Shown in pieces: positions 21,621 to 58,527 of a DNA stretch of 64,000 nt (positions are counted from its first letter, which is position 1; each line of letters opens with the position of its first letter). This stretch comes from an uncultured bacterium. Lineage in GTDB: Bacteria; Patescibacteriota; Saccharimonadia; UBA4664; SCTI01. Location of the stretch: the NCBI GenBank assembly GCA_963721685.1, contig CAVRJJ010000005.1:103943-167942 (forward strand), written 5' to 3'. The position numbers were made by a program, and so were the translations under genes. The notes under the pieces were generated by a model. That model was not told the DNA's origin and ran no database searches. It saw nothing but the letters and a program-made list of their open reading frames with translations.

Positions 21621-21651
21621 GTCTGGTGGAGGCACCGGGAATCGAACCCGG
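21621..21651. repeat. 31-bp direct repeat copy 1 (tRNA 3' end: gtctggtggaggcaccgggaatcgaacccgg)
   Basis: 29/31 identical to 22598-22628; corresponds to T-arm plus acceptor 3' strand of the tRNA-like gene. Confidence 0.8.
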
Positions 21652-21695
21652 CCGACCCGAGTCGCGATCAGGTCACGACGCCAGTCTGTACCCCC
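21624..21695 (-). tRNA. tRNA-like element, degenerate or noncanonical (good acceptor/T-arm/CCA, no canonical D/anticodon arms in 72 nt); probable integration-site remnant
   Basis: Reverse complement GGGGGTA...CCGGGTTCGATTCCCGGTGCCTCCACCA; middle 31 nt cannot be folded into standard D plus anticodon arms; 10-bp complement between flanks tgtctggtgg/ccaccagaca. Confidence 0.35.
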
Positions 21696-21880: not shown

Positions 21881-22393
21881 CTATTCAAACCTAAATAATT
21901 CCACATTCTTGTCCACTTCACTGGAGGCAAAAATCCCGCCGTTCATGGAAAGGTAAACGCCGGGTTTAATGTTAGCAAACGACGCAACTACAAACCCCAG
22001 GTTGAAGCCGGCATCGGACGCGGCGAAACCAGTCAACGGGATCATCGATCCGGTCACAATAATTTTCTTAAGCCCCCCCCCGCTAAATTCTTGATCTAAA
22101 AATTGGGCTGTGTCTCGCATGGTAAAGGTGCCGTGGGTTACGATAATATTCTCGTGCGGGCTGGCATTAATGGCTTTGACAAGCTTCTTCCGATCTTCGT
22201 CGTTAATGTCCCGGCTGTCTTTTTCGATGACACTTTCAGTACTAAAATTGAAATGAGGCTTTATGAGATTGTGAAAATAACTTTCAATTGATGAATCCAG
22301 CTTCATGAGCTTTTTATTAATAGCGTCGTAGGCCGGGTCAAAGAACTCAATAGTTCCACCCATTTTTACAATGTGGACGTGGCTGTTTGGCAC
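21881..22393 (-). CDS. L-asparaginase/glutaminase family N-domain-like protein (170 aa, short) on AT-rich cassette between tRNA fragment repeats
   Basis: KMGGTIE (TGGTIAG-like) and IIVTHGTFTM (hGTDTM-like) motifs. Confidence 0.5.
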   Translation of the reverse strand: MPNSHVHIVKMGGTIEFFDPAYDAINKKLMKLDSSIESYFHNLIKPHFNFSTESVIEKDSRDINDEDRKKLVKAINASPHENIIVTHGTFTMRDTAQFLDQEFSGGGLKKIIVTGSMIPLTGFAASDAGFNLGFVVASFANIKPGVYLSMNGGIFASSEVDKNVELFRFE

Positions 22394-22597: not shown

Positions 22598-22628
22598 GTC
22601 TGGTGGAGCCACCGGGAATTGAACCCGG
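22598..22628. repeat. 31-bp direct repeat copy 2 (orphan tRNA 3' fragment, no tRNA body upstream)
   Basis: gtctggtggagccaccgggaattgaacccgg; sequence 5' of it in RNA orientation is not tRNA-like. Confidence 0.8.
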
Positions 22629-22657: not shown

Positions 22658-23404
22658 GTGAGTAATATTTTCCATCCAACCAGTTTTAACAACATTTCCG
22701 GATTAACCGTTGCCCTAAGCCTGCGTGACCAGGCGCAGCCCGGCGAATTTAGCATGCTGCCAACCAACACCACCATGGATGTTGTCATGGCTAACCGAAA
22801 ACAGTTCGCAGAAACACTTGGCTTTAAGGAAACGAGTCTTATACGAGCTAATCAAGACCATACCAATCTAGTGGAGGAAGTTACCGACGCCTATCCTACA
22901 ACGGATCCGCCCCAGGCCGACGCCTTAATTTCTAAGACTCCTGGATGGCTCATCGGCGTCACTATTGCCGACTGTGTCGGGCTGGCACTGTATGATCCGG
23001 TGAATTCCGCCCTTGGCATCGTCCATTCGGGCCGCAAAGGGACGATTGGTCGTATCGCTTCCAACACGATCCACAAAATGCAAGAATCGTACGGTACTGA
23101 TCCTGCAGAACTCCTCGTGTATCTTTCACCCTGCCCAAACCCCGACGAATATCCGATTGACCTCGATACCGCCAAAGCTTGCGACCCCCGCTACCTATCC
23201 CCTACTTCCAACCCCAATGAGGTTTATTATGACAACCGCCTAGCGGTTTATGACCAACTAATTGAAGAAGGGGTTGCTCCTGAACATATTGAAATCGATG
23301 AACGCTCAACTATAAGTAACCCCCAGCTCCACTCTTATCGTCGTGACGGGGATAAAGCCGGGCGAATGATGCTCGCGATCGGTTTAAAAAATGAAAAGTT
23401 TTAA
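22658..23404 (+). CDS. pgeF: YfiH/PgeF family (DUF152) purine nucleoside phosphorylase/peptidoglycan editing factor
   Basis: TIADCVGLALYDP and IVHSGRKG motifs. Confidence 0.7.
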   Translation: MSNIFHPTSFNNISGLTVALSLRDQAQPGEFSMLPTNTTMDVVMANRKQFAETLGFKETSLIRANQDHTNLVEEVTDAYPTTDPPQADALISKTPGWLIGVTIADCVGLALYDPVNSALGIVHSGRKGTIGRIASNTIHKMQESYGTDPAELLVYLSPCPNPDEYPIDLDTAKACDPRYLSPTSNPNEVYYDNRLAVYDQLIEEGVAPEHIEIDERSTISNPQLHSYRRDGDKAGRMMLAIGLKNEKF

Positions 23405-23439
23405 TAATTGCTGGTAAACGGACCAGAACACAAACACGT

Positions 23440-23466
23440 GGGGGCGGAGCTCGTCGCTCCGCCCCC
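23440..23466 (+). terminator. GC hairpin gggggcggagc-tcgtc-gctccgccccc after pgeF
   Basis: 11-bp perfect stem 36 nt after stop; no strong T-tract. Confidence 0.45.
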
Positions 23467-23549
23467 AGTGTCACTCCAACCCACGCGGGCCTACGTGGGT
23501 TATGACTGGCGTGAATCGCCGGTCAGTTTGGTTTAGGCGCGGCAGGCGC

Positions 23550-23783
23550 CTAGGTGATCAGCGTGTCGCCACCGAGGTCGGGCGCGTCGCCGAGGGCGTC
23601 GTCGATGATGTCGTCGTCGGCCGCGTTCGAGGTGACCCGGAGGAAGCCGCCGTCGGGCGTGATGGGCAAGCCGGCCTCGAGGTGATGGCAGTGCGCGCCG
23701 CGCGTGTCGCGGTCGATCTCGTGCGCGATGCCGTCGCCGAGGGTGAGGCCATAGTCCTTCGGCGGTGCCAGAATTCCCAGCAT
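23550..23783 (-). CDS. small acidic hypothetical protein (77 aa, MLGILAPPKDYGL...) on high-GC cassette; ORF-track 151-aa version over-extended
   Basis: aggagcaggatc-ATG RBS at 23783; conserved 5' element lies upstream at 23891-23987. Confidence 0.4.
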   Translation of the reverse strand: MLGILAPPKDYGLTLGDGIAHEIDRDTRGAHCHHLEAGLPITPDGGFLRVTSNAADDDIIDDALGDAPDLGGDTLIT

Positions 23784-23890
23784 GATCCTGCTCCTCTTCT
23801 TGCGATGAATAGCAACGCTTAACGATCCCGTCAGCTTATCAGATGCTCCGATAGCTTCATTGGTCGTTTGGTGGTCGATCCTCGAATACG

Positions 23891-23987
23891 TTGCTGTAAC
23901 CCGAGCAAAAAATAACCATATAAAATGGTGAACTTTTGCTCGGGTTACGACGTTGTGTTCTGGTCTGTCAAAGAAATAATCGTAATT
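23891..23987 (-). promoter_or_regulatory. cassette 5' element copy A: TTTCTTTGACAGACCAGAAC plus 15-bp-stem hairpin GTAACCCGAGCAAAA/TTTTGCTCGGGTTAC
   Basis: Read directly; same architecture as 27659-27756 and 29313-29423. Confidence 0.6.
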
Positions 23988-24146
23988 TGCAATATGCATA
24001 ACCACAACTACTGGTAATAAAGTATATAATTCATTTTCGAAATGTCAACAAAAAGCACCGACACTTCATTTTTGTCTTGACTACTGCGTATCCTGATAGC
24101 AACCGATCAAACGATAGGCGCAGGCAAGTGAAGAACGTATTTGTGA

Positions 24147-25169
24147 CTAGCCCAGTTCTTTCTTTAGCTTTTCAACAAGCTCAACGGGGGTTGGATCAAT
24201 CTGATTGAGAAATGCCAGATAGGTCGCCACGAAATCCCCCAGCAAAACCGACCATAGCATTTGCTGTAACTTGGTTTCGCCTTGCGCCTCAACTACAATG
24301 GGTGCCGGCATAATACCGGAAAGCAAACGGTTAGAAACTTCAAAACGTTTTTTAACCCGGTCATTATCCAGGCTTGAATGCAACTGCACCACCGCCATGC
24401 CGCTGTCTTTGGGATGATACCAACCTATAAACTCATTGTGGTTAAATTCGGGAAAGGCATTCACAAATGCCTGGTTCTTGGCGTTTTCATTAAAATCGAT
24501 TTTCCACTTTACCGCTGGCATGGCCAGGGTTGGGCCGCCATACATAACAATGGGATGGCCCACCAGTTTTTTGGCAATTTGCTTGGCGGCGTTATCGGCT
24601 TCGGCCACATTGGGCAGAAAATACGACGCCTCGTGCAATACCCATTCAGCGCTGGTTTCAAGCTCTTCCGTTATACCCTTAACCAAGCCAAGCTCTTCAA
24701 GTAATGTTGCCAGGGCCTTTACGCCGTAAAAGACAGCCATGCGCGGCTGGATGCCGCTGGGAATTTTAATTACTGGAAACGCTTCCCCCTGTTCGGCTAG
24801 CTTGCCGCCCGCTGTCATGATAATTACACCGGCGCCGGTCGTCTTTGCCTGCTCAAAGCAAGACAGGGTTTCCTCGGTATTACCAGAATAACTGGATACA
24901 ATTACCAGCGTTTGGTCATTTACGTATTTGGGCAAGGTGTAATCCCGGACGATCTCAATGGGTATAGTTAAGCGATCTGACAGCCAGTGACGGATGAATT
25001 CGGCAGCAATAGCCGATCCGCCCATACCCGCCAAAACAATCTTATCAAGACCTTCAACCTCGGGCACATCAAATTGGTACTGTTCCCTTAGTTGCTCCCC
25101 TTCGCTGGCCACTACGGTAAGTAAGTCGCTGTGATCAAACTGGTGGATATATTTTGAGTCGTCTAGCAC
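24147..25169 (-). CDS. SIS-domain bifunctional phosphoglucose/phosphomannose isomerase family
   Basis: LAGMGGSAIAAEF, VIVSSYSGNTEET SIS motifs; host-like GC. Confidence 0.65.
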   Translation of the reverse strand: MLDDSKYIHQFDHSDLLTVVASEGEQLREQYQFDVPEVEGLDKIVLAGMGGSAIAAEFIRHWLSDRLTIPIEIVRDYTLPKYVNDQTLVIVSSYSGNTEETLSCFEQAKTTGAGVIIMTAGGKLAEQGEAFPVIKIPSGIQPRMAVFYGVKALATLLEELGLVKGITEELETSAEWVLHEASYFLPNVAEADNAAKQIAKKLVGHPIVMYGGPTLAMPAVKWKIDFNENAKNQAFVNAFPEFNHNEFIGWYHPKDSGMAVVQLHSSLDNDRVKKRFEVSNRLLSGIMPAPIVVEAQGETKLQQMLWSVLLGDFVATYLAFLNQIDPTPVELVEKLKKELG

Positions 25170-25237
25170 GTATGCCTCCGCTTAGTATCCTCGTATTGTA
25201 GCTTCTAGGCGCAGAGGAGTCGAATAATTGCTGAGTG

Positions 25238-26070
25238 TGACACATCAGAACATAGGAGACGCGGGCGGGGGCCGTCCAAAGCCCCCGCCTTGTGAATGCG
25301 CCTCTGGCACCGATCCAGAGGTAGGCGATAGGATCGGCATCAGCTGTGCCGCAGGTGCGGCAGAAACTACGGAAGATCCAGCGAACGGCAACTGAGGCCG
25401 ACGGGAGGGGAAACGACCCCAGCCACCGTTCGCTTTACAGGGCTTGACCTTCTCCAACGCGCGACTCCCTGAGTGACGCGCGGTATGCACGCGGTAGACA
25501 GCTAAATGTCACTGCCAAAGCCGCGTACGTTTGAGCGCCGAGGCGCGGCGCCTAGATCTGATTCGAACTGCCACCGCCGGATCGCTTCGAGGTGGAGACC
25601 ATCCCCGGAAGGTTCACGACCTTGCCGGTTGTGGACCTGATCGGCAGGCCAGGAGGCGGCATGCCGAACGGAACCTTCTCGGTCCCCCGATGTCGTGTCG
25701 TCATTTGACGCTCCTGATGGGCGCGCTGTTGCGCTGTCGGAGGTACCTCGTCGGACTGACCGCCGTCGACGATGTCGAGACCACGCTGTACGTAGTGGTC
25801 GGCCGCAACACGGCGACCGGAGTGGTACTGGGGCCCGCTGCAGACGAGCCGTTGGTATGGCCATTCATCGATGAATCCCCTCTTCTAGCTGCGCGAAGAC
25901 AGTGGCTGCCAAGCCACGAGACAACATTCCGTGATCCATCCTTGCAATCAAAGACGCTTGTCTCATCCGTAGATATATCGCGCATATATCCCGAACAGCT
26001 AACCGCCAATATAAATTAGAAGCTGGCTGTCCGGGACAAAAACCGAAATTCGCTATGTTCTGATGTGTCA
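25238..26070. mobile_element. 833-bp high-GC cassette bounded by 17-bp perfect inverted repeats TGACACATCAGAACATA; right end also carries the TTGACA-type cassette 5' motif; small Ser/Thr-rich ORFs inside (e.g. 25701-25868 minus, 56 aa, GAGGGGA RBS)
   Basis: IRs at 25238-25254 and 26054-26070 read directly; coding content ambiguous (all six frames open due to GC). Confidence 0.35.
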
Positions 26071-26264
26071 AAGAATGTCGCGAATACTTATAAATAACCG
26101 CAACTGGTAAGACATTGTAGTTATACTTGCCAGAAGCGTCAACCCAGCAAGCCGTTGCGGGCTCTGCACCTTTAACCTGGCCGCTTTGTCAAAAAGCTCA
26201 TAAAAGCGAATAATTGCTGTTAGAACAGGCTTGAACACAATAGCAGGCATAGCGAGGTGGACAT

Positions 26265-26739
26265 AGTCGACATGGTGGCGGGCCGAAGCCCGCCACCGGT
26301 CGAGTTGAAGGGCTAGATGCCCGGTTGCGGGTCACTCCACTTGCTGTATCGCTGGCCGACGATGCGGTACTCGATGACTCCGTTCACATACACCGGCTTC
26401 TTCTCGACGTAGTAGACGCAGTCCAGCGTCGTGATCTTCCAGCGCTGCCAGTCGACGCGCTTGCAGGCCCCGTAAGGCACATTCGTGGCGTTTGAAACGC
26501 CCCATGCCTGGACGACTGCATCTTGAGCTTCAAGGCATGTCGGCATCGCGGGGTGATCGATCTTGGCCGCGATGTTGAAGAACACCGCAGTCGGACTCGG
26601 AGACCAACAGGGGTTCCAGTCTGGGTCGCACTCGCCCCTTGTTCCGTAGTCGTTGTAGTCAGGTTGCACCTGGCTGACCGGCGTGCTCGCACCAGCCACT
26701 GGCCACGGCGAGTTAATCGGTTGCGCGTCGTAGTAGTAG
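26265..26739. repeat. 475-bp block nucleotide-identical to 27881-28355 (3' gene ends plus 3' hairpin); second identical block 26792-26873 = 28408-28489
   Basis: Direct base-by-base comparison; mosaic identity. Confidence 0.9.
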
Positions 26740-27602
26740 TCGACATAGGTTGCCGCCCCATCATCAAGATCCATGATCTTGATTTGGGCCCGCTGCTGTA
26801 CGGGGCCCCGCCCGTAGGTGTCCAGCGCCGGGTCATAGGCGTTGGGGTAGTGGTAGTAGATCGGGAACGGCGTCGAACCTTGGAGTTGGAAATCCTGGTA
26901 GTAGCCGTCGCCAGAGTGAATCCGAATCCGCCGACCCACACCATTGTCTGTGTTGGCCGTCCGCGGGACGTTGATGATCAACTCTGCCCGAATGAGCTTG
27001 TTCGAAGTACCCGTCGGGTGAGTCAATCCACTAGTCGTCGATTCCGTGTGGCTCCTTGTTGAAAACGAGGAAGACACAAGCTTGTCTTCCTTTGCCACGT
27101 AATACCCGCCTTGGAAGGAATCGATTACAGTCGATCTCGTATACGGAGACGTCGGTACAGGAGCCAAAGCCGAGGTTTGGCTCCCCCCGTATTGCGAAAC
27201 GTATGGAGCGCTGGCATTTGCGCGTGCGCGCGACTCAGCAGTGGAACTTCCTGGAGCTCCAAGCATGCCTTGTCCCGCTGCTTCTACTGCGCGACGGGCT
27301 GTGTCACCCCGAATTGACTGCTTTGAAGGGCAAGCCGATCCAGTTGTTTTGATGACGGTGATGACCCACTTGGTGCCGTCCCACTGAGCACGCAGGTAGA
27401 CATAAACGTCGCATTGCTGCCCGCTCGAGCAGAAGATGAGCTTCGTGGTTGGCGTAGCCGGATTTGCCGAGACAATGCAGTAGTGCGGCAAGCCCGTCAC
27501 CGGGTCCGGAATGTGGAAGGCGGCACTCGCTGGCGACGGCGCAACTGCCATTGCCACGGACACTACGATGGCGGCTGCCAACGTAGTAAATAGTCTTTGC
27601 AT
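26313..27602 (-). CDS. secreted Cys-rich hypothetical protein, paralog A (signal peptide MQRLFTTLAAAIVVSVAMAVAPSPASA)
   Basis: 429 aa; C-terminal 190 aa identical to paralog B; 6 Cys in last 90 aa. Confidence 0.6.
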   Translation of the reverse strand: MQRLFTTLAAAIVVSVAMAVAPSPASAAFHIPDPVTGLPHYCIVSANPATPTTKLIFCSSGQQCDVYVYLRAQWDGTKWVITVIKTTGSACPSKQSIRGDTARRAVEAAGQGMLGAPGSSTAESRARANASAPYVSQYGGSQTSALAPVPTSPYTRSTVIDSFQGGYYVAKEDKLVSSSFSTRSHTESTTSGLTHPTGTSNKLIRAELIINVPRTANTDNGVGRRIRIHSGDGYYQDFQLQGSTPFPIYYHYPNAYDPALDTYGRGPVQQRAQIKIMDLDDGAATYVDYYYDAQPINSPWPVAGASTPVSQVQPDYNDYGTRGECDPDWNPCWSPSPTAVFFNIAAKIDHPAMPTCLEAQDAVVQAWGVSNATNVPYGACKRVDWQRWKITTLDCVYYVEKKPVYVNGVIEYRIVGQRYSKWSDPQPGI

Positions 27603-27658
27603 CTGATGCTCCTCACATGTAGCTGGGCAGTGAAAGGCAATTACCTCGTTCTCGAGCT

Positions 27659-27756
27659 CACTGCTGTAACCCGAGAAAAAGCTTGCAATAGATTATCTAC
27701 AAACTCATTTTCGGGTTACAGCAGTGTTCTGATCTGTCAAAGAAAATGCCGTAATC
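27659..27756 (-). promoter_or_regulatory. cassette 5' element copy C (19-bp stem cactgctgtaacccga.aaa / ttttcgggttacagcagtg, then GTTCTGATCTGTCAAAGAAA)
   Basis: 57 nt upstream of paralog A start. Confidence 0.6.
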
Positions 27757-27928
27757 AAACCTAATAGGAGCAACTACGACAAGTGTAGGGATTCTAATGC
27801 TTACTGTTGCACTTCGTCAATAGCGCCAATTTAAATAATTGCATTTGAAACGGATCAGAAGACTTTTAACTTGAGTTGTTAGTCGACATGGTGGCGGGCC
27901 GAAGCCCGCCACCGGTCGAGTTGAAGGG

Positions 27929-29254
27929 CTAGATGCCCGGTTGCGGGTCACTCCACTTGCTGTATCGCTGGCCGACGATGCGGTACTCGATGACTCCGTT
28001 CACATACACCGGCTTCTTCTCGACGTAGTAGACGCAGTCCAGCGTCGTGATCTTCCAGCGCTGCCAGTCGACGCGCTTGCAGGCCCCGTAAGGCACATTC
28101 GTGGCGTTTGAAACGCCCCATGCCTGGACGACTGCATCTTGAGCTTCAAGGCATGTCGGCATCGCGGGGTGATCGATCTTGGCCGCGATGTTGAAGAACA
28201 CCGCAGTCGGACTCGGAGACCAACAGGGGTTCCAGTCTGGGTCGCACTCGCCCCTTGTTCCGTAGTCGTTGTAGTCAGGTTGCACCTGGCTGACCGGCGT
28301 GCTCGCACCAGCCACTGGCCACGGCGAGTTAATCGGTTGCGCGTCGTAGTAGTAGAACGCGTAGGACACGCTCCTGTCGTCGAGATCCTCAATCTTCAGA
28401 ACCGCATGCTGCTGTACGGGGCCCCGCCCGTAGGTGTCCAGCGCCGGGTCATAGGCGTTGGGGTAGTGGTAGTAGATCGGGAACGGCGTGGTGGTCGATA
28501 TGAACATGTCCACGTGCGAGCCGTCGCCGGCGGAGATCCTGATGCGCCGGCCGTTGATGTTGGTACGCGGCACATTGACTACGAGCCCCGCCTCCATCAC
28601 CTTGTTCGAAGTACCCGTCGGCTGCTTGAGCACAGCGGTCTCGGCGTGATTTCTTGGCGTGATCCCGCCCGTTGATCCGCCCTTTGCCCGGATGGTTCCA
28701 CCGTCGAAACTTTCGATAGCGGTGAACGGCCGTGCATATGGCGCCGGGGGTGTCTGGCTGGTCGACCATGTCGGATTTGAAGCGGTCAGATATGGGGCCG
28801 TCCCCTTCGCCCTTGCAGACGCCGCCGGCCCCCAGCCTGGCGGCGGAGGATTCGCTCCACCGGGATCACCCAACATCCCCTTGCCAGCCTGTTCGACGGC
28901 TCGCTTTCCCTTGGCCGCGCGTTGCGCTCGCCTGGCCGGGGTCGCACCTACCGCCGTCGATTCCGTCACGACCCACTTGCCGTTGATGAACTCAGCGCGC
29001 ATCCAGATGGAGACGCTGCTGCGCGTCCCGTCGACGCAGTGCACAACGGCTACGCGCGGCCCTTCGCCCCGATCGATGACGACGCAGGTCAACTCCTCTC
29101 CCGTTTCCGGGTCGGTGATGATGTAGGCCTCAATCCCTTCGCCACCGGGAATGAAGATGGGGCCGTTCGCGCTTGCTGGTGACGGCGAGAACGCCATGGC
29201 CAGCATCGCGGCAACGGTTACGCATAGAGCCATCCGACGTTTTCTCATTTTCAT
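27929..29254 (-). CDS. secreted Cys-rich hypothetical protein, paralog B (true start MKMRKRRMALCVTVAAMLAMAF at 29254; track ORF over-extended to 29449)
   Basis: gggagcattctc-ATG RBS; signal peptide; conserved blocks TGTSNK..VNVPRT, TPFPIYYHYPNAYDPALDTYGRGPVQQ shared with A. Confidence 0.6.
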   Translation of the reverse strand: MKMRKRRMALCVTVAAMLAMAFSPSPASANGPIFIPGGEGIEAYIITDPETGEELTCVVIDRGEGPRVAVVHCVDGTRSSVSIWMRAEFINGKWVVTESTAVGATPARRAQRAAKGKRAVEQAGKGMLGDPGGANPPPPGWGPAASARAKGTAPYLTASNPTWSTSQTPPAPYARPFTAIESFDGGTIRAKGGSTGGITPRNHAETAVLKQPTGTSNKVMEAGLVVNVPRTNINGRRIRISAGDGSHVDMFISTTTPFPIYYHYPNAYDPALDTYGRGPVQQHAVLKIEDLDDRSVSYAFYYYDAQPINSPWPVAGASTPVSQVQPDYNDYGTRGECDPDWNPCWSPSPTAVFFNIAAKIDHPAMPTCLEAQDAVVQAWGVSNATNVPYGACKRVDWQRWKITTLDCVYYVEKKPVYVNGVIEYRIVGQRYSKWSDPQPGI

Positions 29255-29312
29255 GAGAATGCTCCCTTGGTTGCTGGTAACAGTGTATGGTGAATCTTTA
29301 TCGACCTCAGGT

Positions 29313-29423
29313 CCACTGCGTAACCCGAGCAAAAAACCACCAAAAAAGTATGGTGGACTTGTGCCCCGGGTTACGCCCGGTAAATTTATGTGTCCTAACC
29401 TGTCAAAGAAACTAGTCGTAATT
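29313..29423 (-). promoter_or_regulatory. cassette 5' element copy D (imperfect hairpin gcgtaacccgagcaaaaaaccacca / tggtggacttgtgccccgggttacgc, then CCTGTCAAAGAAA)
   Basis: Upstream of paralog B start. Confidence 0.5.
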
Positions 29424-29558
29424 AGAGAAAAAGCTCTAATTGCGGCCACATGGTATTAGATTCTATAATGAATTTTTAATTTGTCAATATATGTTCAGCC
29501 AGCAGAAAGAGCCTACTATAGCTCTTTCTGCTCAATATCAATTATCCTGTTCTGAGCT

Positions 29559-31232
<1,674 letters not shown>

Positions 31233-33913: not shown

Positions 33914-33987
33914 GCTGATATTTTATTTTCTAAAACTTAATTTTGAGTTAAATGAGGCTTGTTTATCTCTAAGGCAAGATAAGAGAC

Positions 33988-34129
33988 AAATCTGCATCAA
34001 ATCTGCATCAAATCTGCATCAAATCTGCATCAAATCTGCATCAAATCTGCATCAAATCTGCATCAAATCTGCATCAAATCTGCATCAAATCTGCATCAAA
34101 TCTGCATCAAATCTGCATCAAATCTGCAT
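33988..34129. repeat. 11-bp tandem repeat (ATCTGCATCAA)x~13, perfect
   Basis: Read directly; lies in intergenic region before divergent gene 34240(+); ORF 33882-34133 is an artefact of it. Confidence 0.95.
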
Positions 34130-42271: not shown

Positions 42272-42385
42272 GATCTGATAATATCATGATGTAGAGAAGG
42301 TTCAGCACGATGGCTGAAACTTAAACCGCTTTATTGCCATACAGCTGATCACTTTAGGCAAATAGCTTGCTTGATTATTGCGTGA

Positions 42386-42411
42386 GAACGCCCCCTCCAG
42401 GGCGTTCTCAA
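42386..42411 (-). terminator. hairpin gagaacgccc-cctccag-ggcgttctc downstream of 42453-43064
   Basis: 10-bp stem; weak U-tract. Confidence 0.3.
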
Positions 42412-42452
42412 TCGATTGACGGAGGTCGCCTGGAGGAGACGCTTGGATCGTG

Positions 42453-43064
42453 CTAGCAGCCGAGTGGCTTCAGTGCCGCTTCCGGCAGCGTATCCACGAG
42501 GTCTGCGAGGTGGCCCAGGTTGACCGGCTCCCTCAGCTGGTTGAAAGGACAGATCAGGACGAGCCCGATCTCGGTCTGCCGGTAGATGCACTCGTAGCAG
42601 ACCAGCCCATGGAACATGGCCAGCATCGCTGCGAGTTGCAGCATGGTGCCCACGTTGAAATCGGAGGTCGCGTACCTGCAGTTGTCCGTGAGTCCACCGA
42701 CGGTGACCAGCATCTCGTTGAGATCGAGGAACCCGCCGGAAACGTGCCTGTAGAGCAGCATGCTCCCGGAGCGAGGAACGCAGACGATCGCGTCCCCGAC
42801 CATCGGAGGCGAGACCACGGCGCGCGGCACGGTGTAGTCAGCTTGAACTCGCACCCGTGGCTGATGCCGCCGGGTGTGGTTCCTCATCAGCGTCAGGATG
42901 CCGACGGAGCCGAGCAAGGCGATCGTGGAGCCGAGGGGCATCCACTTCGGACCCTCGACCCAGCCACTGAGGTAGGCGGAGGTAATGATCGCGGACAAAC
43001 CTACGGCGATCAAAAAGAACGGCCACATGGGGCCGGTGTACGAAACCCTACTTGAAATCGACAT
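42453..43064 (-). CDS. high-GC membrane protein with C-terminal Cys-rich region, hypothetical (start MSISSRVSY, GGAGGA RBS)
   Basis: RBS plus ATG at 43064; 2 TM helices. Confidence 0.4.
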   Translation of the reverse strand: MSISSRVSYTGPMWPFFLIAVGLSAIITSAYLSGWVEGPKWMPLGSTIALLGSVGILTLMRNHTRRHQPRVRVQADYTVPRAVVSPPMVGDAIVCVPRSGSMLLYRHVSGGFLDLNEMLVTVGGLTDNCRYATSDFNVGTMLQLAAMLAMFHGLVCYECIYRQTEIGLVLICPFNQLREPVNLGHLADLVDTLPEAALKPLGC

Positions 43065-43180
43065 TGATGCTATCCTCCAGGTTGGGGTAGGCCCTATCGC
43101 TAGGGGGCTGACATCAGTCAACACATTGCAGATAATAATACCATATTTATACTAATATAGCAAATTTTGATATTTGAAAT

Positions 43181-43245
43181 AAGCATAAGTCCTATGGTGC
43201 AGCACACTGGCTGAGGTTAGAACCATTTTATTATCGTATGGCGTA
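43181..43245. repeat. tRNA-Arg-derived att-like repeat R1 (aagcataagtcctatggtgcagcacactggctgaggttagaacc...)
   Basis: Shares aagcataag..ctatggtgc with the 3' flank/end of tRNA-Arg (46234-46253) and a degenerate T-arm. Confidence 0.8.
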
Positions 43246-43258
43246 GGTTGGAGCCCAA

Positions 43259-43684
43259 CTAAGACTTTTTTATCCTGAGCGGGTTAACTAATTTGAGCCC
43301 CTCAATATGCTGAAAATCATCCTTATTTGCAGTCCATAGCGCAACATCATGCTCAAGAACCGTAGCCGCTATGATCGAGTCACCTAAGCTCATGCGTCTG
43401 GCCTGGCGGAGTTTAATTGCTCGATCAACGATTGCGTCAGTAAGCGCAAGGCTATACGACTCCCCAAAGAGAGCATCAAGCAGTAGCAGCTCATTGGCAG
43501 GAATTCGGGCGTAGCCAAGCGCTTCAATTTTTGTGATGCTGGCGTGAGCTATGTCAGTTTCTGCAATAACATGGCGATCGAGCGTACCGTTTGAAAGATA
43601 AATAAATATATTGGTGTCGAGAATGATCACCAGAATTACTCTCTTCCTGGTAGAGAACGATCCGCACGATTCGTGCGCTGCCAT
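43259..43684 (-). CDS. vapC: PIN-domain toxin VapC
   Basis: ILDTNIFIYL...TANKDDF PIN acidic residues. Confidence 0.75.
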   Translation of the reverse strand: MAAHESCGSFSTRKRVILVIILDTNIFIYLSNGTLDRHVIAETDIAHASITKIEALGYARIPANELLLLDALFGESYSLALTDAIVDRAIKLRQARRMSLGDSIIAATVLEHDVALWTANKDDFQHIEGLKLVNPLRIKKS

Positions 43685-43899
43685 GCAGCCGGGTCATGTA
43701 TGTCTGTATAAGCTCCAATTTCTTGCAGTTGCTTCAGTAGTTCTTGTATCCGCTTTCGATCCTGTATTGATTCCGAAGTTGGTAATGCAATAATGGCTTT
43801 TTGCCCTAACTCCAACTGCGCGTCCTCTACGTACTTTTTCGGTACGCGAAGGGCATAGGAATTACCAGTTTTAATAACGGTTGCAGTGTAATTACGCAT
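43636..43899 (-). CDS. vapB: AbrB/MazE (SpoVT-AbrB) antitoxin VapB
   Basis: MRNYTATVIKTGNSYALRVPKKYV swapped-hairpin motif; overlaps vapC. Confidence 0.7.
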   Translation of the reverse strand: MRNYTATVIKTGNSYALRVPKKYVEDAQLELGQKAIIALPTSESIQDRKRIQELLKQLQEIGAYTDIHDPAAWQRTNRADRSLPGRE

Positions 43900-43965
43900 T
43901 GTAACTACAATTATACTTACAACGCTATAAGCGTCAAGTCACATTTTGTACTGATAATGGAAAAT

Positions 43966-44020
43966 AAGCATAAGCCCTATGGTGCAGCACGTTGGCTGAA
44001 GTTAGAACCATTTTATGTGG
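43966..44020. repeat. att-like repeat R2
   Basis: aagcataagccctatggtgcagcacgttggctgaagttagaaccattttat. Confidence 0.8.
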
Positions 44021-44051
44021 TTAACCTGATGGGTGTTGACGAAATTGATGG

Positions 44052-44273
44052 TTACGCCCAAAACTCTTGGGCACCAAGGTTCGACTGCTGTATAATATTC
44101 CTCAAAGTACCGGGTAAGATATCCCGACTGTGGAATGGAACCACAACGATAGCTTTAGTATCTGGGCGATGATAAATGCGGTGACTGCCGGTTTGGCGTT
44201 TCAGCAGAAATCCTTTACCAAGCAGCACTTTCTCGAGTTCTTTTGGCGTGTACGAGCGGCTCTGCTTCGGCAT
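44052..44273 (-). CDS. hicA: HicA mRNA-interferase toxin
   Basis: GSHRIYHRPD...VVVPFHSRDILPGTLRNIIQQ. Confidence 0.75.
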   Translation of the reverse strand: MPKQSRSYTPKELEKVLLGKGFLLKRQTGSHRIYHRPDTKAIVVVPFHSRDILPGTLRNIIQQSNLGAQEFWA

Positions 44274-44286
44274 ACTTGAGTACTAC

Positions 44287-44553
44287 TTACAGCCTAGCCG
44301 GAGAGCCAAAAGCAATTTTCCTGGTCGTGATGTAGTAGTCATCTGCATCTGGCCGAGGTAATGGTTCCCCAAGTTCAACCAGCGTTTCCAGGTAAAGTTT
44401 GATGGCTTGCTCCATGTTGGTGACAGCTGTATCAATTGTTGCACCAAAATCGGACAAACCTAAAGAGGGTGCATAGGCTACATAGACAGTTTTGCCATCC
44501 TGCTGCTCTTGCTCGACGATAATTCTATAGTTAGATACTGTAGTTTTCATATG
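44287..44553 (-). CDS. hicB: HicB antitoxin (start MKTTVSNYRII; track ORF over-extended into repeat R3)
   Basis: UPF0150-like: YAPSLGLSDFGATIDTAVTNMEQAIKLYLETL. Confidence 0.65.
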   Translation of the reverse strand, partial: HMKTTVSNYRIIVEQEQQDGKTVYVAYAPSLGLSDFGATIDTAVTNMEQAIKLYLETLVELGEPLPRPDADDYYITTRKIAFGSPARL

Positions 44554-44617
44554 ACCAATTATATCATGTTCACCGACGCAATTATCTGTTGAAGTTGGCA
44601 GTCTCCACAGAAAGAAT

Positions 44618-44675
44618 AAGCATAAGCTTAATGGTGCGACACACTGGCTGCGGTTAGAACCTTTTATTATCGTAT
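44618..44675. repeat. att-like repeat R3
   Basis: aagcataagcttaatggtgcgacacactggctgcggttagaaccttttattatcgtatagc. Confidence 0.8.
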
Positions 44676-44818
44676 AGCAAATCATATCAGGCAAATGGGA
44701 TTGGAAGAAATTAGAACTTTCAATGGTGGAAGCCTATAGATTTTCGAGCTTTTGCCTAGACGTGCAGGCGCCCCGCTGGGCGAGGTGCCTGCGGGGCGCT
44801 AGTTGGACCTCTTGCTCT

Positions 44819-45355
44819 TTATGCGAACCCAGGTTCGGGAACGACGCTCGAGGAGCCGGGACGGCCGGTGACACGCATCTCGCGCATCCCCTTCCGTGCG
44901 CCCTCAAGCCACAGCCACTCGTTCGTTCCACCGTGGACGCAGATCAGGTGCCCGTGCTCGGGACATCCGAGGAGGTTGAGGGACTCGTGATCGATCCAGT
45001 CAACGTTCTCCATGCAGGTCGGGCAGACGATCTGGAGGTTGACCCACCCCTGCTTCCTGGTTGGGTTGTAGGTGACCTCAACCAGGTTGCCGGGACCGTG
45101 AACCTGCATGTAGCCCCGGGGAAGGGTCGTGGTGTAGCCACGCACCTCCCAGGGAGCCAGACTCGGGTACTTGGGCTTGTCAATGCCCTTGACCTCGAGA
45201 TGGATGTCACCTCCGCATGCCAGGGGGAAGCAGAGGTTGCGCAAGCCATGCGCTCCCGCCGGATGCTGATCGAAGAGGTTCAGGACGAAGTCCCACTTGG
45301 ACGGTCCCTTGCCGGTTTCCAGCGAAATGGGCAGAATGTAAGCCAATTGACTCAC
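44819..45355 (-). CDS. high-GC hypothetical protein with Cys/His clusters (CPTC...CPEHGHLIC)
   Basis: ORF only; start uncertain. Confidence 0.3.
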   Translation of the reverse strand: MSQLAYILPISLETGKGPSKWDFVLNLFDQHPAGAHGLRNLCFPLACGGDIHLEVKGIDKPKYPSLAPWEVRGYTTTLPRGYMQVHGPGNLVEVTYNPTRKQGWVNLQIVCPTCMENVDWIDHESLNLLGCPEHGHLICVHGGTNEWLWLEGARKGMREMRVTGRPGSSSVVPEPGFA

Positions 45356-45486
45356 CCTTCTATGGTTCGTACCTCGAGAGTGCGAGGAAACACGTTGCGC
45401 CGAAGCACCACCTAAGCCAGTTGACCCAGGAATAGGGAATATTATATCATGTATGTCTTAATAAGTCCAGGATTAAGATTGTAAAA

Positions 45487-45548
45487 AAGCATAAGCCCTA
45501 TGGTGCAGCACGCTGGCTGAGGTTAGAAGCATTTTAGTGTCGTATAGT
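45487..45548. repeat. att-like repeat R4
   Basis: aagcataagccctatggtgcagcacgctggctgaggttagaagcattttagtgtcgtatag. Confidence 0.8.
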
Positions 45549-45718
45549 GGTGCGGTAGCGGCAAATGGATAGTCCAGCCCGGATGAAAAGAACCTAAACG
45601 CGTTAAAGCCCCACTGGGCTTACATGTGTAGCTCCCAATGGGGCTGTTTGGACAGGCAGGTGGCGTAATATGCCATTTGAACTCGCCAACTGCGAGCCTG
45701 CCTTACTGAAGACGACGG

Positions 45719-46105
45719 TTACTTCCGTGCCCCGATGTGGTGCAGACGCTCTTTCTTGAGCTCCTGGATGCCCAAGTCGGTGTCCCAGATCCTGCTCAGC
45801 AGGGTGTGAAGGACGCTGTCGGCGAAGGCCACGAAGGAGTCCCACGACATATCGTCGTAGGGGGTCTTCACGGTCCAGGTGATGCCCTCTGCCTCCAGCT
45901 GAATCAGAACCATCATCGCAGCGCCATCGGTGGGAGTGATCTCCTCGATGGCCTTGTGGATGGCCTTGTCGAGGTCGTCCACGTTCCATGCTTCGGGGGT
46001 GGCGTGATCGGCGTTGTACCACGCGAAGGCGCGGATGCCGAGGAGTTCGAGAGTCTGGGACTCCCTGAGCTTGTCAATGGGGTCGGGATCGCATGTGAGC
46101 GACAT
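45719..46105 (-). CDS. high-GC hypothetical protein (start MSLTCDPDPIDKL, GGAG RBS)
   Basis: RBS plus ATG 46105. Confidence 0.35.
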   Translation of the reverse strand: MSLTCDPDPIDKLRESQTLELLGIRAFAWYNADHATPEAWNVDDLDKAIHKAIEEITPTDGAAMMVLIQLEAEGITWTVKTPYDDMSWDSFVAFADSVLHTLLSRIWDTDLGIQELKKERLHHIGARK

Positions 46106-46247
46106 CTGATCTCCAGAGGTTCGAAAGGGTTGCTTGACCTTCAGCGTCAACAATAATAACATATAGAGCATGATAAGTCAATGGCAGATTATGTGCGACG
46201 GTCATCGTCGAGGTATGAATAGGATGAAAGAATAAGCATAAGTGCTA

Positions 46248-46324
46248 TGGTGCGCCCGGCAGGATTCGAACCTGCGACCTCCAGTACCGCAAACTGACGC
46301 TCTATCCAGCTGAGCTACGGGCGC
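46248..46324 (-). tRNA. tRNA-Arg (anticodon reads GCG)
   Basis: Manual cloverleaf: GCGCCCG acceptor, D GCTC/GAGC, anticodon loop TTGCGGT, T-loop TTCGAAT, discriminator A, CCA. Confidence 0.8.
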
Positions 46325-46376
46325 ATGTGGGCTTAAGACTTCAAGAGATTATCATAATTTCAGGTCGGGCGGAAGG

Positions 46377-48620: not shown

Positions 48621-49046
48621 TTATTCGCCGGCACCGGGAGCAAGCGACGAAGTAACGAAGTTTACTATGGCGTAGGCCAAAATCGCGACGATAATGCCAA
48701 TCACCGAATAGAGAATGGTATCTTTGGCTGAAGAAACATGTTCTTTATTACCCTGGGAAATAACGTAGCGCAAGCCACCGATAATCAACATGATAACGGC
48801 CACGGCACCCACTAGGAAAATGAGAATGTTGGCAATGGTGTGGAAGATACCACCGGCGCCAAACAAGTCGCCGCTGGTGCCTTTTGCTTGGGAACATTGG
48901 GCTCCGGCGTTAATAGGGTTCTCGGCAGAAGCCGGATCACTGCAGGTCTCTCCGGTAGTTTCACCGGCCAAGATCGCTGAGGGCAGAAAGCCGGCGGCAA
49001 CAATGCTGACCTTGAGCACCCTGTCGTTTAGAAGTAGTTTATTCAC
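48621..49046 (-). CDS. T4SS VirB2/TrbC-like pilin paralog P1
   Basis: Signal peptide, Cys-containing variable region, TM1 IANILIFLVGAVAVIMLIIGGLRYVISQG, loop, AKDTILYSVIGIIVAILAYAIVNFV TM2. Confidence 0.6.
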   Translation of the reverse strand: MNKLLLNDRVLKVSIVAAGFLPSAILAGETTGETCSDPASAENPINAGAQCSQAKGTSGDLFGAGGIFHTIANILIFLVGAVAVIMLIIGGLRYVISQGNKEHVSSAKDTILYSVIGIIVAILAYAIVNFVTSSLAPGAGE

Positions 49047-49119
49047 AATTTAATTTCCTTTTAAGTTGTTACGCTTATTTTGGTGCAATATTATCATAGT
49101 TTAATCCAGATGGCTACCA

Positions 49120-49518
49120 TCAAGGCTCGCGGGGCGGCGGGGGAGCCAAAGCTCCGGATACAAAATTAACGATCGCGTAGGCTAAAATCGCGACCACAAT
49201 CCCAATAATGCTATACAGCAGGGTGTCTTTAGCGGACTTAACTTGGGCCGCGTCGCCTTGGGAAATAACGTAACGCAATCCGCCAATGATCAGCATGATC
49301 ACGGCCACGGCACCCACCAGGAAAATAAGCAGGTTCGCGATTTGGGAAAAACTTCCCTGTAGGTCGCCCGAAACGCCAGCGGGTTTTGCATCCCTGGCAC
49401 CTTCGTCAATTTTTGTTACCGCCAGGGCCGATTGCGAGAGGGAAAGGCAAAAAAGCCCGGCCAAGAGTATTTTTTGCTTATACCGATTAATCATTAATCC
49501 TCCTTTATTACCCAACAT
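49120..49518 (-). CDS. T4SS pilin-like paralog P2
   Basis: Same architecture; GGLRYVISQGD...AKDTLLYSIIGIVVAILAYAIVNFV. Confidence 0.6.
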   Translation of the reverse strand: MLGNKGGLMINRYKQKILLAGLFCLSLSQSALAVTKIDEGARDAKPAGVSGDLQGSFSQIANLLIFLVGAVAVIMLIIGGLRYVISQGDAAQVKSAKDTLLYSIIGIVVAILAYAIVNFVSGALAPPPPREP

Positions 49519-49906
49519 TTTGACTCACAAACCGGACAATCGCGTAAGCCAAAACCACGACAATCAAACCGATAACGGCGTAAAGCAGCGTGTCTTTGGC
49601 GGCTTTAATCCTAGCCGCGTCGCCGGTTGAAGTAACGTAGCGAATGCCCGCTAAAATAATAATTATTACGGCAATGGCTCCGGCTACCAGCAGCAAGGTA
49701 TTGGTCACGTCTCCAAGAAAACCATTGTCACCGGTAAGTTCCTTTTGCCCGGTAATGTTGCATTTGCCATTAACAATGGTGCCGCCGGCTCCTTTGCACA
49801 GATTAATTTCTGTGGTTGTTGGAGGTGGAGGCGGCGGAGCTCCTGCAAAGGAAGCCCGCGACACGCCAAGCCAAAGCCCTGCCAGCAATAGCCCAATCCG
49901 TTGCAT
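49508..49906 (-). CDS. T4SS pilin-like paralog P3
   Basis: AGIRYVTSTGD...AKDTLLYAVIGLIVVVLAYAIV; poly-Pro after signal peptide. Confidence 0.6.
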   Translation of the reverse strand: MQRIGLLLAGLWLGVSRASFAGAPPPPPPTTTEINLCKGAGGTIVNGKCNITGQKELTGDNGFLGDVTNTLLLVAGAIAVIIIILAGIRYVTSTGDAARIKAAKDTLLYAVIGLIVVVLAYAIVRFVSQNVG

Positions 49907-50265
49907 TAAGCTATCTTCCCCACTACGAAGCCCACAATGGCCCGCGCCAAAATCACCACGATCAACCCGATAACCGCATAAAGGATGGTGTCTTTAGCGG
50001 CTTGGATGCGTTTGGCATCCCCCGTTGAGGTTATATAACGGATGCCGCCCATGATTAAAATCAGAACCGCGATGGCGCCCACCACAATGAATAGCGTATC
50101 TATTACCACATTGAGCTTTGTTGTAAGGGCGGTATCGCTGCAGGCCGCCGAACCCGCCACCGCTTTCAGCCCCTCGCATTGCTGGCTAGCGGCAAGGGCG
50201 CCTTGCGGGACAATCATAAGAATAAAAAGTCCGAGCCGCGTAAGTTTTTGCCGAATTGCTAACAC
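49906..50265 (-). CDS. T4SS pilin-like paralog P4
   Basis: GGIRYITSTGD...AKDTILYAVIGLIVVIL. Confidence 0.6.
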   Translation of the reverse strand: MLAIRQKLTRLGLFILMIVPQGALAASQQCEGLKAVAGSAACSDTALTTKLNVVIDTLFIVVGAIAVLILIMGGIRYITSTGDAKRIQAAKDTILYAVIGLIVVILARAIVGFVVGKIA

Positions 50266-50266
50266 C

Positions 50267-50677
50267 CTAGCCTCCTGCCGCGTGAATAATAAATGCCGAA
50301 ATCGGTACTGCCAGAAAGGTGACGATCAACCCGATAATAGCATAGAGCAGGGTATTCTTAGCGCTTTCTATACGAGTGGGGTCACCGGTTGAAGTGATAT
50401 AACGCACACCTCCCATAATGACAAAGATGAAGGAAACAATGCCAGCCGCGAACAAGAAAATATTTAAGAACACTTGGAAGTAGGTGAGCCCATCAGGGTC
50501 GCCATTGCTATCAAGCTTTTGGCCATCCGCGTCGCAGCCGCTCATGGCGGGAAGGGCGTCGCAAGCTTTCCCCACAATAGACGATGGCTTGCTGGCTGCC
50601 ACGGCAGGGGAGCTAGCGAAAATAAAACCACTTACCAACACTGTAAGAATAAGCATAAGATGTTTCATTGATTGCAT
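50267..50677 (-). CDS. T4SS pilin-like paralog P5
   Basis: GGVRYITSTGD...AKNTLLYAIIGLIVTFL. Confidence 0.6.
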   Translation of the reverse strand: MQSMKHLMLILTVLVSGFIFASSPAVAASKPSSIVGKACDALPAMSGCDADGQKLDSNGDPDGLTYFQVFLNIFLFAAGIVSFIFVIMGGVRYITSTGDPTRIESAKNTLLYAIIGLIVTFLAVPISAFIIHAAGG

Positions 50678-50710
50678 TGTAACTAAAACACCAGATAGGT
50701 GTCAAAAAGG

Positions 50711-58524: not shown

Positions 58525-58527
58525 GCA

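Follow-up and report, generated by a model that had tools for sequence, protein, structure and literature searches.

A conserved structured leader RNA, often with a matched trailer, precedes variable cargo at the groEL-PGI locus of Saccharimonadales

The leaders of rRNA operons (rrn) carry boxB, boxA and boxC after the promoter, with boxC in the 5′ strand of a helix that joins leader and trailer, and it has been proposed that NusB/S10 bound to boxA retains the leader close to the RNA exit channel for as long as it takes the trailer to emerge (PMC10250234). boxA is also placed upstream of the long non-coding arrays of clustered regularly interspaced short palindromic repeats (CRISPR), where it serves to resist Rho (PMC7665894). 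The gamma-proteobacterial boxA consensus is GYTCTTTAANA (PMC5725501), and GCTCTTTGAAA is the boxA of both rrn and CRISPR loci in M. xanthus (bioRxiv 10.64898/2026.07.09.737519). Here we describe a repeated element, consisting of a TTGACA-containing box and a long hairpin, in a 64,000-nt stretch of contig CAVRJJ010000005.1 from an uncultured bacterium of the Saccharimonadia (hereafter, the window). The element is a new, lineage-wide structured leader RNA of Saccharimonadales, which is often accompanied by a matched trailer, marks a hypervariable locus and precedes foreign-looking cargo. Its general kind, a cis-acting leader, is known; its present form and use have not been described.

The rrn-like layout of the element, the resemblance of its box to boxA and the use of boxA on CRISPR arrays led us to propose an antitermination/bracketing module on non-rRNA cargo, and we consider the element to be a cis-acting leader that probably belongs to an antitermination or processing module. 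In its full form, this proposal takes the element to be the transcribed 5′ leader of an expression unit, acting as RNA within a leader/trailer module of the rRNA-operon type; this is the reading that we favour, tentatively.

Layout of the repeated units

The box, which reads GTTCTGRTCTGTCAAAGAA on the plus strand, occurs four times in the window (at 23957, 26057, 27726 and 29392), against 0.00 occurrences expected from shuffled sequences, and the repeated box-and-hairpin element noticed in an initial annotation of this DNA is therefore real. Long imperfect palindromes with GTAACCCGAG-type arms adjoin three of the four boxes, those of units A, C and D (23896-23948, 27659-27726 and 29319-29372, respectively). 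The remaining copy, in unit B, had been taken to be partial; it proved to be a full copy with a diverged hairpin (UCCCGGACAGC / GCUGUUCGGGA), and the complete unit B element scores 85 bits with a covariance model. The consensus given at that time also needs to be amended for unit D, which departs from it (TTTCTTTGACAGGTTAGGAC). The bases of the hairpins read GTAACCCGAG/CTCGGGTTAC, TTACCTCGAG, GTTGCCCCG and ATCCTGAGG. All four copies lie 5′ of minus-strand open reading frames (ORFs), in segments with a GC content of 58-67% as against about 50% for the genome.

The conserved unit is larger than the roughly 100 nt first assigned to it, since it includes an upstream promoter, an additional hairpin and a conserved 3′ end. 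On the gene strand, the order is a promoter, about 10 nt, a first hairpin (HP1), the pyrimidine-rich YTTGACA box, a short leader strand, the long hairpin (HP2), 40-130 nt and then the cargo, which is either a non-coding RNA or an ORF preceded by a Shine-Dalgarno sequence. Downstream of the cargo lie a 3′ hairpin and then the trailer, a strand with complementarity to the box and leader strand; a terminator comes last. In all, 12 units were compared, namely the four of the window (A to D) and those at related loci in other contigs, which are given L-numbers below. HP1 was observed in 11 of the 12, ending 0-3 nt 5′ of the box with z-scores of -1.9 to -3.7, and the box was unpaired in local fold predictions. 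HP2 is a hairpin of 22-28 bp in a palindrome of 52-77 nt. At the other end of the unit, the motif AATAATTGC (plus strand) opens every GC-rich segment of the window, at 23403, 25223, 26209 and 27834; its fifth match in the window lies elsewhere, on the opposite strand.

A promoter scan over 10 kb gave, as its four best minus-strand sites, the four sigma-70-like promoters listed in Table 1, each of which is 71-81 nt upstream of a box. The same distance from -35 to box was found in 10 of 11 units across genomes, the exception being L050 with 57 nt. Since a complete promoter lies 71-81 nt upstream and no usable -10 follows the TTGACA box, the box and HP2 would fall inside 5′ untranslated regions (UTRs) predicted to be 180-240 nt long, with transcription start sites that are predicted from sequence rather than mapped. 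These observations also bear on the earlier suggestion that the cassettes carry a promoter of which TTGACA is the -35, in which case transcripts would begin in or near HP2. The hexamer is indeed perfect and conserved in all copies. However, no -10-like hexamer is present at 16-18 nt, where GTAACC or TGTAAC is found instead and the spacing varies between copies, and the scan skipped the box, calling the complete upstream promoter in every unit. Moreover, in B, L049 and L046 the TTGACA itself is part of the long-range complementarity between box and trailer described below. We therefore give almost no credence to a -35 function of the box.

Table 1. Positions of the parts of units A to D in the window
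Feature	Position	Strand	Remarks
Unit A promoter-like site, TTGACA-16-TATACT	24021..24048	-	11/12 matches; 77 nt from -35 to box
Unit A HP1 (boxB-like position), ends at box	23975..24012	-	Minimum free energy -12.6, z -3.7
Unit A box TTTCTTTGACAGACCAGAACACA, YTTGACA core and leader strand of long-range complementarity	23954..23976	-	
Unit A HP2, GUAACCCGAGCAAAA...UUUUGCUCGGGUUAC	23896..23948	-	
Unit A cargo ORF	23550..23783	-	About 77 aa; GC at third codon positions (GC3) 0.91; orphan
Unit A 3′ end	23403..23467	-	GC-rich hairpin 23439-23467, trailer 23418-23433, motif CAGCAATTATT
Unit B promoter-like site, TTGACG-17-TACAAT	26114..26142	-	
Unit B HP1	26077..26104	-	z -2.3
Unit B box ATTCTTTGACACATCAGAACATA	26054..26076	-	
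Unit B HP2 core, diverged	25989..26036	-	6 G.U pairs on gene strand; within 69-nt hairpin
Unit B cargo, two overlapping small ORFs	25552..25868	-	55 and 50 aa; putatively coding, from GC3
Unit B 3′ end	25223..25255	-	Trailer 25238-25255, motif CAGCAATTATT
Unit C promoter-like site, TTGACG-18-TAGAAT	27791..27820	-	
Unit C HP1	27747..27781	-	z -3.3
Unit C box TTTCTTTGACAGATCAGAACACT	27723..27745	-	
Unit C HP2	27659..27726	-	28 bp
Unit C cargo, secreted protein	26313..27602	-	429 aa; very small uncharacterised family
Unit C 3′ end	26209..26297	-	Hairpin 26274-26297, degenerate trailer ~26226-26247, motif CAGCAATTATT
Unit D promoter-like site, TTGACA-16-TAGAAT	29460..29487	-	Directly downstream of groEL
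Unit D HP1	29413..29448	-	z -1.9
Unit D box TTTCTTTGACAGGTTAGGACACA	29389..29411	-	
Unit D HP2	29314..29372	-	
Unit D cargo, paralog of C	27929..29254	-	441 aa
Unit D 3′ end	27834..27913	-	Hairpin 27890-27913, trailer ~27846-27863, motif GCAATTATT

Structural conservation of the leader and its trailer

An alignment of nine leaders (A5) yielded, on folding with RNAalifold, an HP2 of 24 pairs, 18 of which differ on both sides across the alignment. Paired cells in HP2 amounted to 87.5%, as against 71% in shuffles, none of 500 of which reached the observed value, and 36-50% when the partner was slid. HP2 is under structural selection. Its fold was more stable on the gene strand in nine of the ten units having HP2, with one tie; for B the values were -33.7 kcal/mol on the sense strand and -18.3 on the antisense strand (full 69-nt hairpin), and for L051, -37.8 and -24.2. 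G.U pairs in HP2 numbered about 31 on the sense strand and 12 on the antisense strand. The sense-strand stability and the excess of G.U pairs point to RNA of the gene strand, not duplex DNA, as the form in which HP2 acts. The idea of a structured leader common to different cargo, put forward in the initial annotation, is thus upheld: the element lies between the predicted promoter and the start codon, its hairpin covaries and favours the sense strand, and it is conserved in Saccharimonadales.

Complementarity was also observed between the two ends of the units. The trailer of unit A is complementary to the box region 23953-23968 at 15 of 16 positions, and that of unit B to 26053-26070 at all 18. 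A significant partner of the box near the unit's own 3′ end was found in seven of the 12 units, namely A, B, L049, L051, L054 and L052b (0/200 shuffles each) and L046 (1/200). The box and trailer segments are GACAGACCAGAACAC / GTGTTCTGGTCCGT in unit A, ACAAGACAGAACG / CGTTCTGTCTTGT in L051 and L054, CAAGACGGAACCAA / TTGGTTCCATCTTG in L052b and TGACATAATAGACTG / CAGTCTATTAGTCA in L046. Box and trailer covary, their sequences being wholly different in L046 and L052b with the pairing retained. When duplexes of short segments were compared, the cognate box-trailer pairs scored best within their rows; RNAduplex runs of whole leaders against long 3′ regions allowed large loops, were uninformative and were set aside in favour of this short-segment analysis. 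In L046, L051, L054 and L052b, the trailer ends at most 6 nt before a canonical intrinsic terminator, and it therefore lies inside the transcript. The trailers of the window overlap a small local hairpin (CUGGU..ACCAG in A, CUGUU..AACAG in C), which is followed by CAAUUAUU.

Units C and D show a crossed pattern. The box of D finds its best partner in the trailer of C, and the trailer of D fits the box of C better than it fits its own. By eye, two G.U pairs are present in the pairing of the D box with the C trailer, numbers too small for selection to be called at the RNA level. A 300-nt block at the 3′ ends of the C and D genes (26264-26563 and 27880-28179) is 100% identical between them, and their 5′ halves have diverged, which indicates recent gene conversion; the trailers directly outside this block differ and appear swapped relative to the leaders. 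The swapped matches together with the identical 3′ ends suggest that one unit was duplicated and then partly converted.

The nearest relatives of the PGI gene (24147-25169), itself excepted, are found in Candidatus Saccharimonadales at no more than 76% identity. Related contigs carry groES-groEL, gap, PGI and a Cu-oxidase_4 gene, and PGI and Cu-oxidase_4 abut or overlap in L044, L046, L049 and L052. In the window these two genes are 742 bp apart, and the spacer holds the whole of unit A. Since the genes abut or overlap in the relatives, unit A, promoter included, is an insertion, which spans 23405-24146 between the stop codons of PGI and Cu-oxidase_4. The gap between groEL and PGI measures 700-1350 nt in the relatives and contains no, or only tiny, called ORFs; by eye, it shows throughout a promoter, HP1, YTTGACA box, HP2, GC-rich body and terminator. 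The corresponding gap of the window holds three tandem units (D, C and B), to which unit A is additional. In L052/L053, the leader-bearing unit is separated from groEL by another GC-rich unit, which has a promoter and no called ORF (L052 4700-5250), so the window is not alone in having tandem units here; this further unit has no recognisable box or HP2.

A covariance model (R1) was built from the nine-leader alignment. Outside the training set, its matches in the groEL-PGI spacer were L054-L057 (65.9 bits) and L052/53 (23.8 bits); a further match was L058 at 33.4 bits (E 6e-8). The L058 match is immediately upstream of P0123, which is remotely homologous to cargo C/D and has different genes around it. 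Control loci with an exact 20-nt match to the box scored at most 19.4 bits, and a scan of the window with R1 returned no matches beyond the known copies. The initial annotation had made its proposal depend on conservation beyond this locus and had called for a search by covariance model; R1 finds the leader in related Saccharimonadales, and the element is present elsewhere, L058 included. It had also stated that no nameable element matches, and this holds for Rfam: no family matched the window at gathering score, and at E ≤ 5 the region 23300-29600 gave a generic hairpin match alone (mir-6302, 30 bits versus 90).

L051 and L054 are homologous throughout, with leader, trailer and tRNA-like arms conserved and the middle diverged, and their comparison reveals compensatory changes in the terminator and in HP2. 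Leader and trailer are kept in more distant units as well, and the bodies of those units show no similarity to one another. The relatives were found by protein-anchored synteny, the exact pattern TTCTTTGACASRYYAGRACA being too strict for those that have diverged. This pattern has 16 matches in genome contigs, 27 in metagenome contigs and 1 in viral contigs, which we reject as apparently due to chance, since they fall mostly in coding sequence, none has the hairpin and none exceeds 19.4 bits with R1. One stretch, L012 5998-6095 (JBFLWV010000036.1, Patescibacteria MAG041), shares 22 identical nucleotides with the box (TTTCTTTGACACACCAGAACAC) and is non-coding. It lies in about 1.5 kb with short overlapping ORFs only, has no HP2-like hairpin and scores 15 bits with R1; the box-like sequence could be due to chance or could be a distant relative of the box.

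Cargo and competing readings

The cargo had been described as unrelated from unit to unit. This stands for A and B, which are unrelated to C and D, and fails for C and D themselves, which are paralogs with 65% protein identity, both secreted and carrying signal peptides. Pfam returned nothing for cargo A, B, C or D, and tblastn of the cargo against phages and plasmids was empty. A word-indexed homolog search with cargo C over 5.8 billion proteins retrieved only C and its paralog D. A full HMMER search with C/D gave eight remote, uncharacterised secreted homologs of 118-356 aa, most of about 320-356 aa, none with a Pfam domain. The AlphaFold model of a C/D-family cargo was poor (mean predicted local distance difference test score 54.5), and Foldseek with the cargo model against PDB gave nothing below E = 0.01. 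At its three codon positions, the ORF of unit A has GC contents of 0.71/0.44/0.91, as is typical of genes from a high-GC donor, whereas the genome has about 50% GC; its sole database relative is a 97%-identical copy in Logan assembly ERR12037361, from the same or a closely related strain. The ORFs of unit B have GC3 values of 0.79 and 0.75, and about 250 nt of GC-rich untranslated sequence follow them. In the relatives, the cargo is mostly non-coding, with no or tiny ORFs. Three of the groEL-PGI units contain tRNA-like elements just 5′ of the trailer (L051 9760-9830, L054 5734-5806 and L052 5829-5909). These score 45-57 bits with a tRNA model and have conserved acceptor, D and T arms; their anticodon loops are aberrant and variable, with A at position 33 (by eye), and ARAGORN calls them Val-aac, Asp-gtc and '???'.

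As in rRNA operons, then, a promoter is followed by a hairpin, a single-stranded U/C-rich box (UUCUUUGACA, to be compared with GYUCUUUAANA and GCUCUUUGAAA) and the 5′ strand of a helix; the partner strand comes after the cargo, the helix covaries, and in some relatives tRNA-like elements lie inside the bracket. Unlike in rRNA operons, the cargo is a gene for a signal-peptide protein, small ORFs or unrelated GC-rich RNA. The helix is also shorter (13-20 bp as against 25-40), it starts within or next to the box and not 18-19 nt after it, there is the additional long hairpin HP2, and Nus binding is here only proposed. The window boxes, (T/A)TTCTTTGACA, match the TCTTT-A-A of the gamma-proteobacterial boxA consensus and have G at position 8, as does the M. 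xanthus boxA. No rRNA genes were present in the window or in the retrieved Saccharimonadales loci, and the box was therefore compared only with the boxA of other lineages. A boxA of the ..TCTTTGAAAA.. type is also known from the rrn operons of Firmicutes.

Based on this likeness, the favoured reading, that of an rRNA-operon-type module, can be worded as a mechanism, for which we infer Nus-factor binding, antitermination, processing and the transcription starts from the analysis. HP1 would stand where boxB does, and the box where boxA does. NusB/NusE (S10), brought to RNA polymerase by the box, would prevent premature termination across a long, structured, high-GC cargo that is untranslated or poorly translated. 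The leader strand, held near the RNA exit channel, would then pair with the trailer as it emerges, so that a helix of 13-20 bp brackets the cargo and serves, in all likelihood, as an RNase III or stability element. As this helix overlaps the box, its formation could also free the Nus factors shortly before transcription reaches the terminator. Once the RNA is processed, HP2 would lie close to its 5′ end or directly at it, as a protective stem or one that is recognised by RNase III. By eye, neither nusB nor rho was noticed among the ORFs of the window, which covers 64 kb of a 466-kb contig and of whose ORFs 18 were scanned with Pfam. A genome with nusB and no rho could still use boxA, as cyanobacteria do (PMC7665894).

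Several observations weigh against this reading. The cognate complementarity of box and trailer was absent or not significant in five of the 12 units (C, D, L044, L050 and L058). The G at position 1 of the consensus is not kept in the window boxes; the invariant part across the family is limited to YTTGACA with the pyrimidines before it, and sequences such as GCTTTGACAA from relatives fit the E. coli boxA consensus only if a gap of 2 nt is allowed. The identity of the box as a boxA is unproven and is suggested by resemblance. In unit A, a terminator-like hairpin lies 5′ of the trailer, which may for this reason not always be transcribed. Finally, the three non-Watson-Crick positions of the pairing (by eye, in unit A, L049 and L052b) are all A.C on the sense strand, which would make them G.U on the antisense strand. 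The antisense duplex of box and trailer is the more stable in these three units. This is contrary to what selection on pairing in the sense RNA predicts, with n=3, and the strand preference that is plain for HP2 is therefore not plain for this helix.

A boxA outside rRNA operons has been described for CRISPR arrays and for the suhB 5′ UTR, where, as here, a boxA-like sequence lies tens of nucleotides after the promoter of a long non-coding or non-rRNA transcript (PMC7665894, PMC5725501). Those cases are without a matched trailer or conserved flanking hairpins, and were verified against the species' own rrn boxA, unlike the present one. Short 5′ UTR elements common to unrelated foreign clusters offer another parallel: ops/JUMPStart with RfaH, LoaP leaders (PMC12691694), the EAR RNA and HK022 put. 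The present element has no sequence similarity to the ops sequence GGCGGTAG, and no NusG paralog is known here; put RNA consists of two hairpins without a single-stranded box.

The same RNA-level evidence, that is, the leader position, the covariation and sense bias of HP2 and conservation before different cargo, would serve equally for a regulon leader, a cis-regulatory 5′ UTR read by a trans-acting factor with no antitermination. In that case an RNA-binding protein or small RNA would read the single-stranded YTTGACA box between the hairpins and control translation or decay of the mRNAs of host-interaction genes, together with non-coding RNAs; HP2 would be an RNase III or stability determinant, and the trailer a fold-back inhibitor. 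In fold-back mRNAs such as hok (fbi/tac) and icaR (5′ UTR-3′ UTR), a segment of the 5′ leader has its complement at the 3′ end of the same transcript. The units share with them this complementarity and a local 3′ hairpin as an alternative structure, and the overlap of trailer and local hairpin would permit such alternatives. Unlike in hok and icaR, the Shine-Dalgarno sequence lies outside the pairing, the cargo is no hydrophobic toxin and no antisense RNA gene is evident. L058, which has the leader and lacks the trailer, is what would be expected of a plain 5′ UTR regulator. On the other hand, no candidate regulator is known, and HP2, as a plain hairpin whose loop varies and in which no unpaired nucleotide is conserved, is not aptamer-like. 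It would have to be a coincidence that the box is like boxA and the layout like that of rrn leaders, and the cargo in most relatives has no ORF to be regulated. We regard a regulon leader as possible but doubtful.

The inverted complementarity of the unit ends could alternatively be a property of DNA. In such a recombination module, the cargo would be flanked by inverted sites, namely the box and its 3′ complement, which would be used for site-specific inversion (a phase switch) or for recombinase-mediated cassette exchange; inversion would uncouple the cargo from its fixed promoter, and HP2 would be an attC-like folded site. This would explain how different cargo comes to lie between conserved ends and how units have multiplied. 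The inverted repeats of 13-22 bp that flank the cargo are unit-specific, as if partner sites shared an identical core, and their few mismatches are not G.U on the sense strand. From genome to genome, leader and trailer are retained around wholly different cargo, comparison with the relatives shows whole units to be insertions, and the reciprocal matches of C and D hint at past exchange. As in integron attC arrays, an imperfect palindrome (52-77 nt) recurs in tandem between unrelated ORFs, with variable cargo between conserved sequences.

However, we found no Pfam integrase, invertase or transposase among the called neighbours of the related loci or among the 18 scanned ORFs of the window, which include several flanking both arrays of the window, the second being described below, and are not an exhaustive scan of it. 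No IntI was seen in these sets either. HP2 lacks the RYYYAAC/GTTRRRY cores (by eye): there are no R''/R' core sites and no conserved GTTRRRY at the hairpin bases. Unlike in integrons, each unit has its own promoter, and the hairpin lies between promoter and ORF with a strong bias to the mRNA strand and G.U pairs. The inserted unit A has its promoter and HP1 outside the repeats, which are therefore not the tips of an element; they are internal to the insertion (23418-23433 and 23953-23968), at the ends of which no target-site duplication or direct repeat was seen by eye, unlike in a miniature inverted-repeat transposable element (MITE) or other transposon with terminal inverted repeats. Six near-identical contigs, L054-L057 from four samples and L052/L053 from two, are colinear at 99.6-100% identity in consensus assemblies, which could hide a minority orientation; this and the lack of an invertase in the scanned ORFs set the locus apart from invertons. 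The position of trailers at most 6 nt before terminators is a feature of a transcript, and five of the 12 units lack the repeat. The attC- or MITE-like site considered in the initial annotation is not borne out by these data, since core sites, a recombinase in the sets scanned and an inverted variant among the near-identical contigs are all missing, and we judge a recombination module to be improbable.

On a more speculative reading, Saccharimonadales might keep a fixed expression dock, ancestrally located between groEL and PGI, that consists of a native promoter, an rRNA-like antitermination leader, a matching trailer and a terminator. Time and again, unrelated DNA would be exchanged in this dock or captured by it, and some of the genes acquired would have the codon usage of high-GC actinobacterial hosts (ORF A, GC3 0.91). 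The known hosts of Saccharibacteria are Actinobacteria. We put this forward as a speculation that is unlikely to be true. If true, the dock would be an integrase-less, integron-like platform for gene capture and expression, through which an ultra-small epibiont expresses foreign, host-derived genes and RNAs, and the leader-trailer ends would have two roles, one in RNA processing and the other as arms for homology or recombination.

Next to nothing is known of gene regulation and RNA biology in the Patescibacteria, whose genomes are tiny and which include the small, parasitic Saccharibacteria. The leader RNA described here is conserved, covaries and has no counterpart in Rfam; it marks a hypervariable locus beside groEL and is found in front of genes for secreted orphan proteins and genes of foreign composition. 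Should the box be a boxA, Nus antitermination and rRNA-style bracketing would have been reused in this phylum for mRNAs and accessory RNAs, and the covariance model would list genes under common control, possibly host-interaction factors. If the unit ends are exchange sites, they would represent a new way of gene capture. Under either reading, the covariance model is a practical probe for the genomes of Saccharibacteria and other Patescibacteria.

Other features of the window

A second array of small units occupies 42300-46330, beside a tRNA-Arg(gcg) gene (46248-46324, minus strand), and shares no sequence similarity with the leader array. Its repeat of about 60 nt, AATAAGCATAAGYCCTATGGTGC plus AGCACRCTGGCTGAGGTTAGAACCATTTTAT, was found at approximately 43178, 43960, 44616 and 45487, with a partial copy at about 42303. 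The first 23 nt of the repeat are also present at the 3′ end and flank of the tRNA-Arg(gcg) gene (46231-46253). The array contains GC3-rich orphan ORFs (42453-43124 and 45719-46171, GC3 0.81; 44819-45355), and its pairs of small ORFs are, by appearance, toxin-antitoxin-like. The array looks like the product of serial integration at a tRNA attachment site without an integrase.

Another tRNA-Arg gene (21624-21695) has at its 3′ end a 31-nt sequence of which a copy, 94% identical, lies 977 nt away (21621-21651 and 22598-22628). The two repeats bracket an asparaginase gene (21881-22393) and are probably an old integration scar. At 33987-34129 we observed a perfect tandem array of 13 copies of the 11-nt unit CAAATCTGCAT. 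Further along, a large plus-strand gene cluster (52109-62268) follows small proteins whose N-termini are, by eye, signal-peptide-like (48621-52056); one of its genes gave a weak TrbL/VirB6 match, and the cluster may encode a type IV secretion or conjugation-like system.

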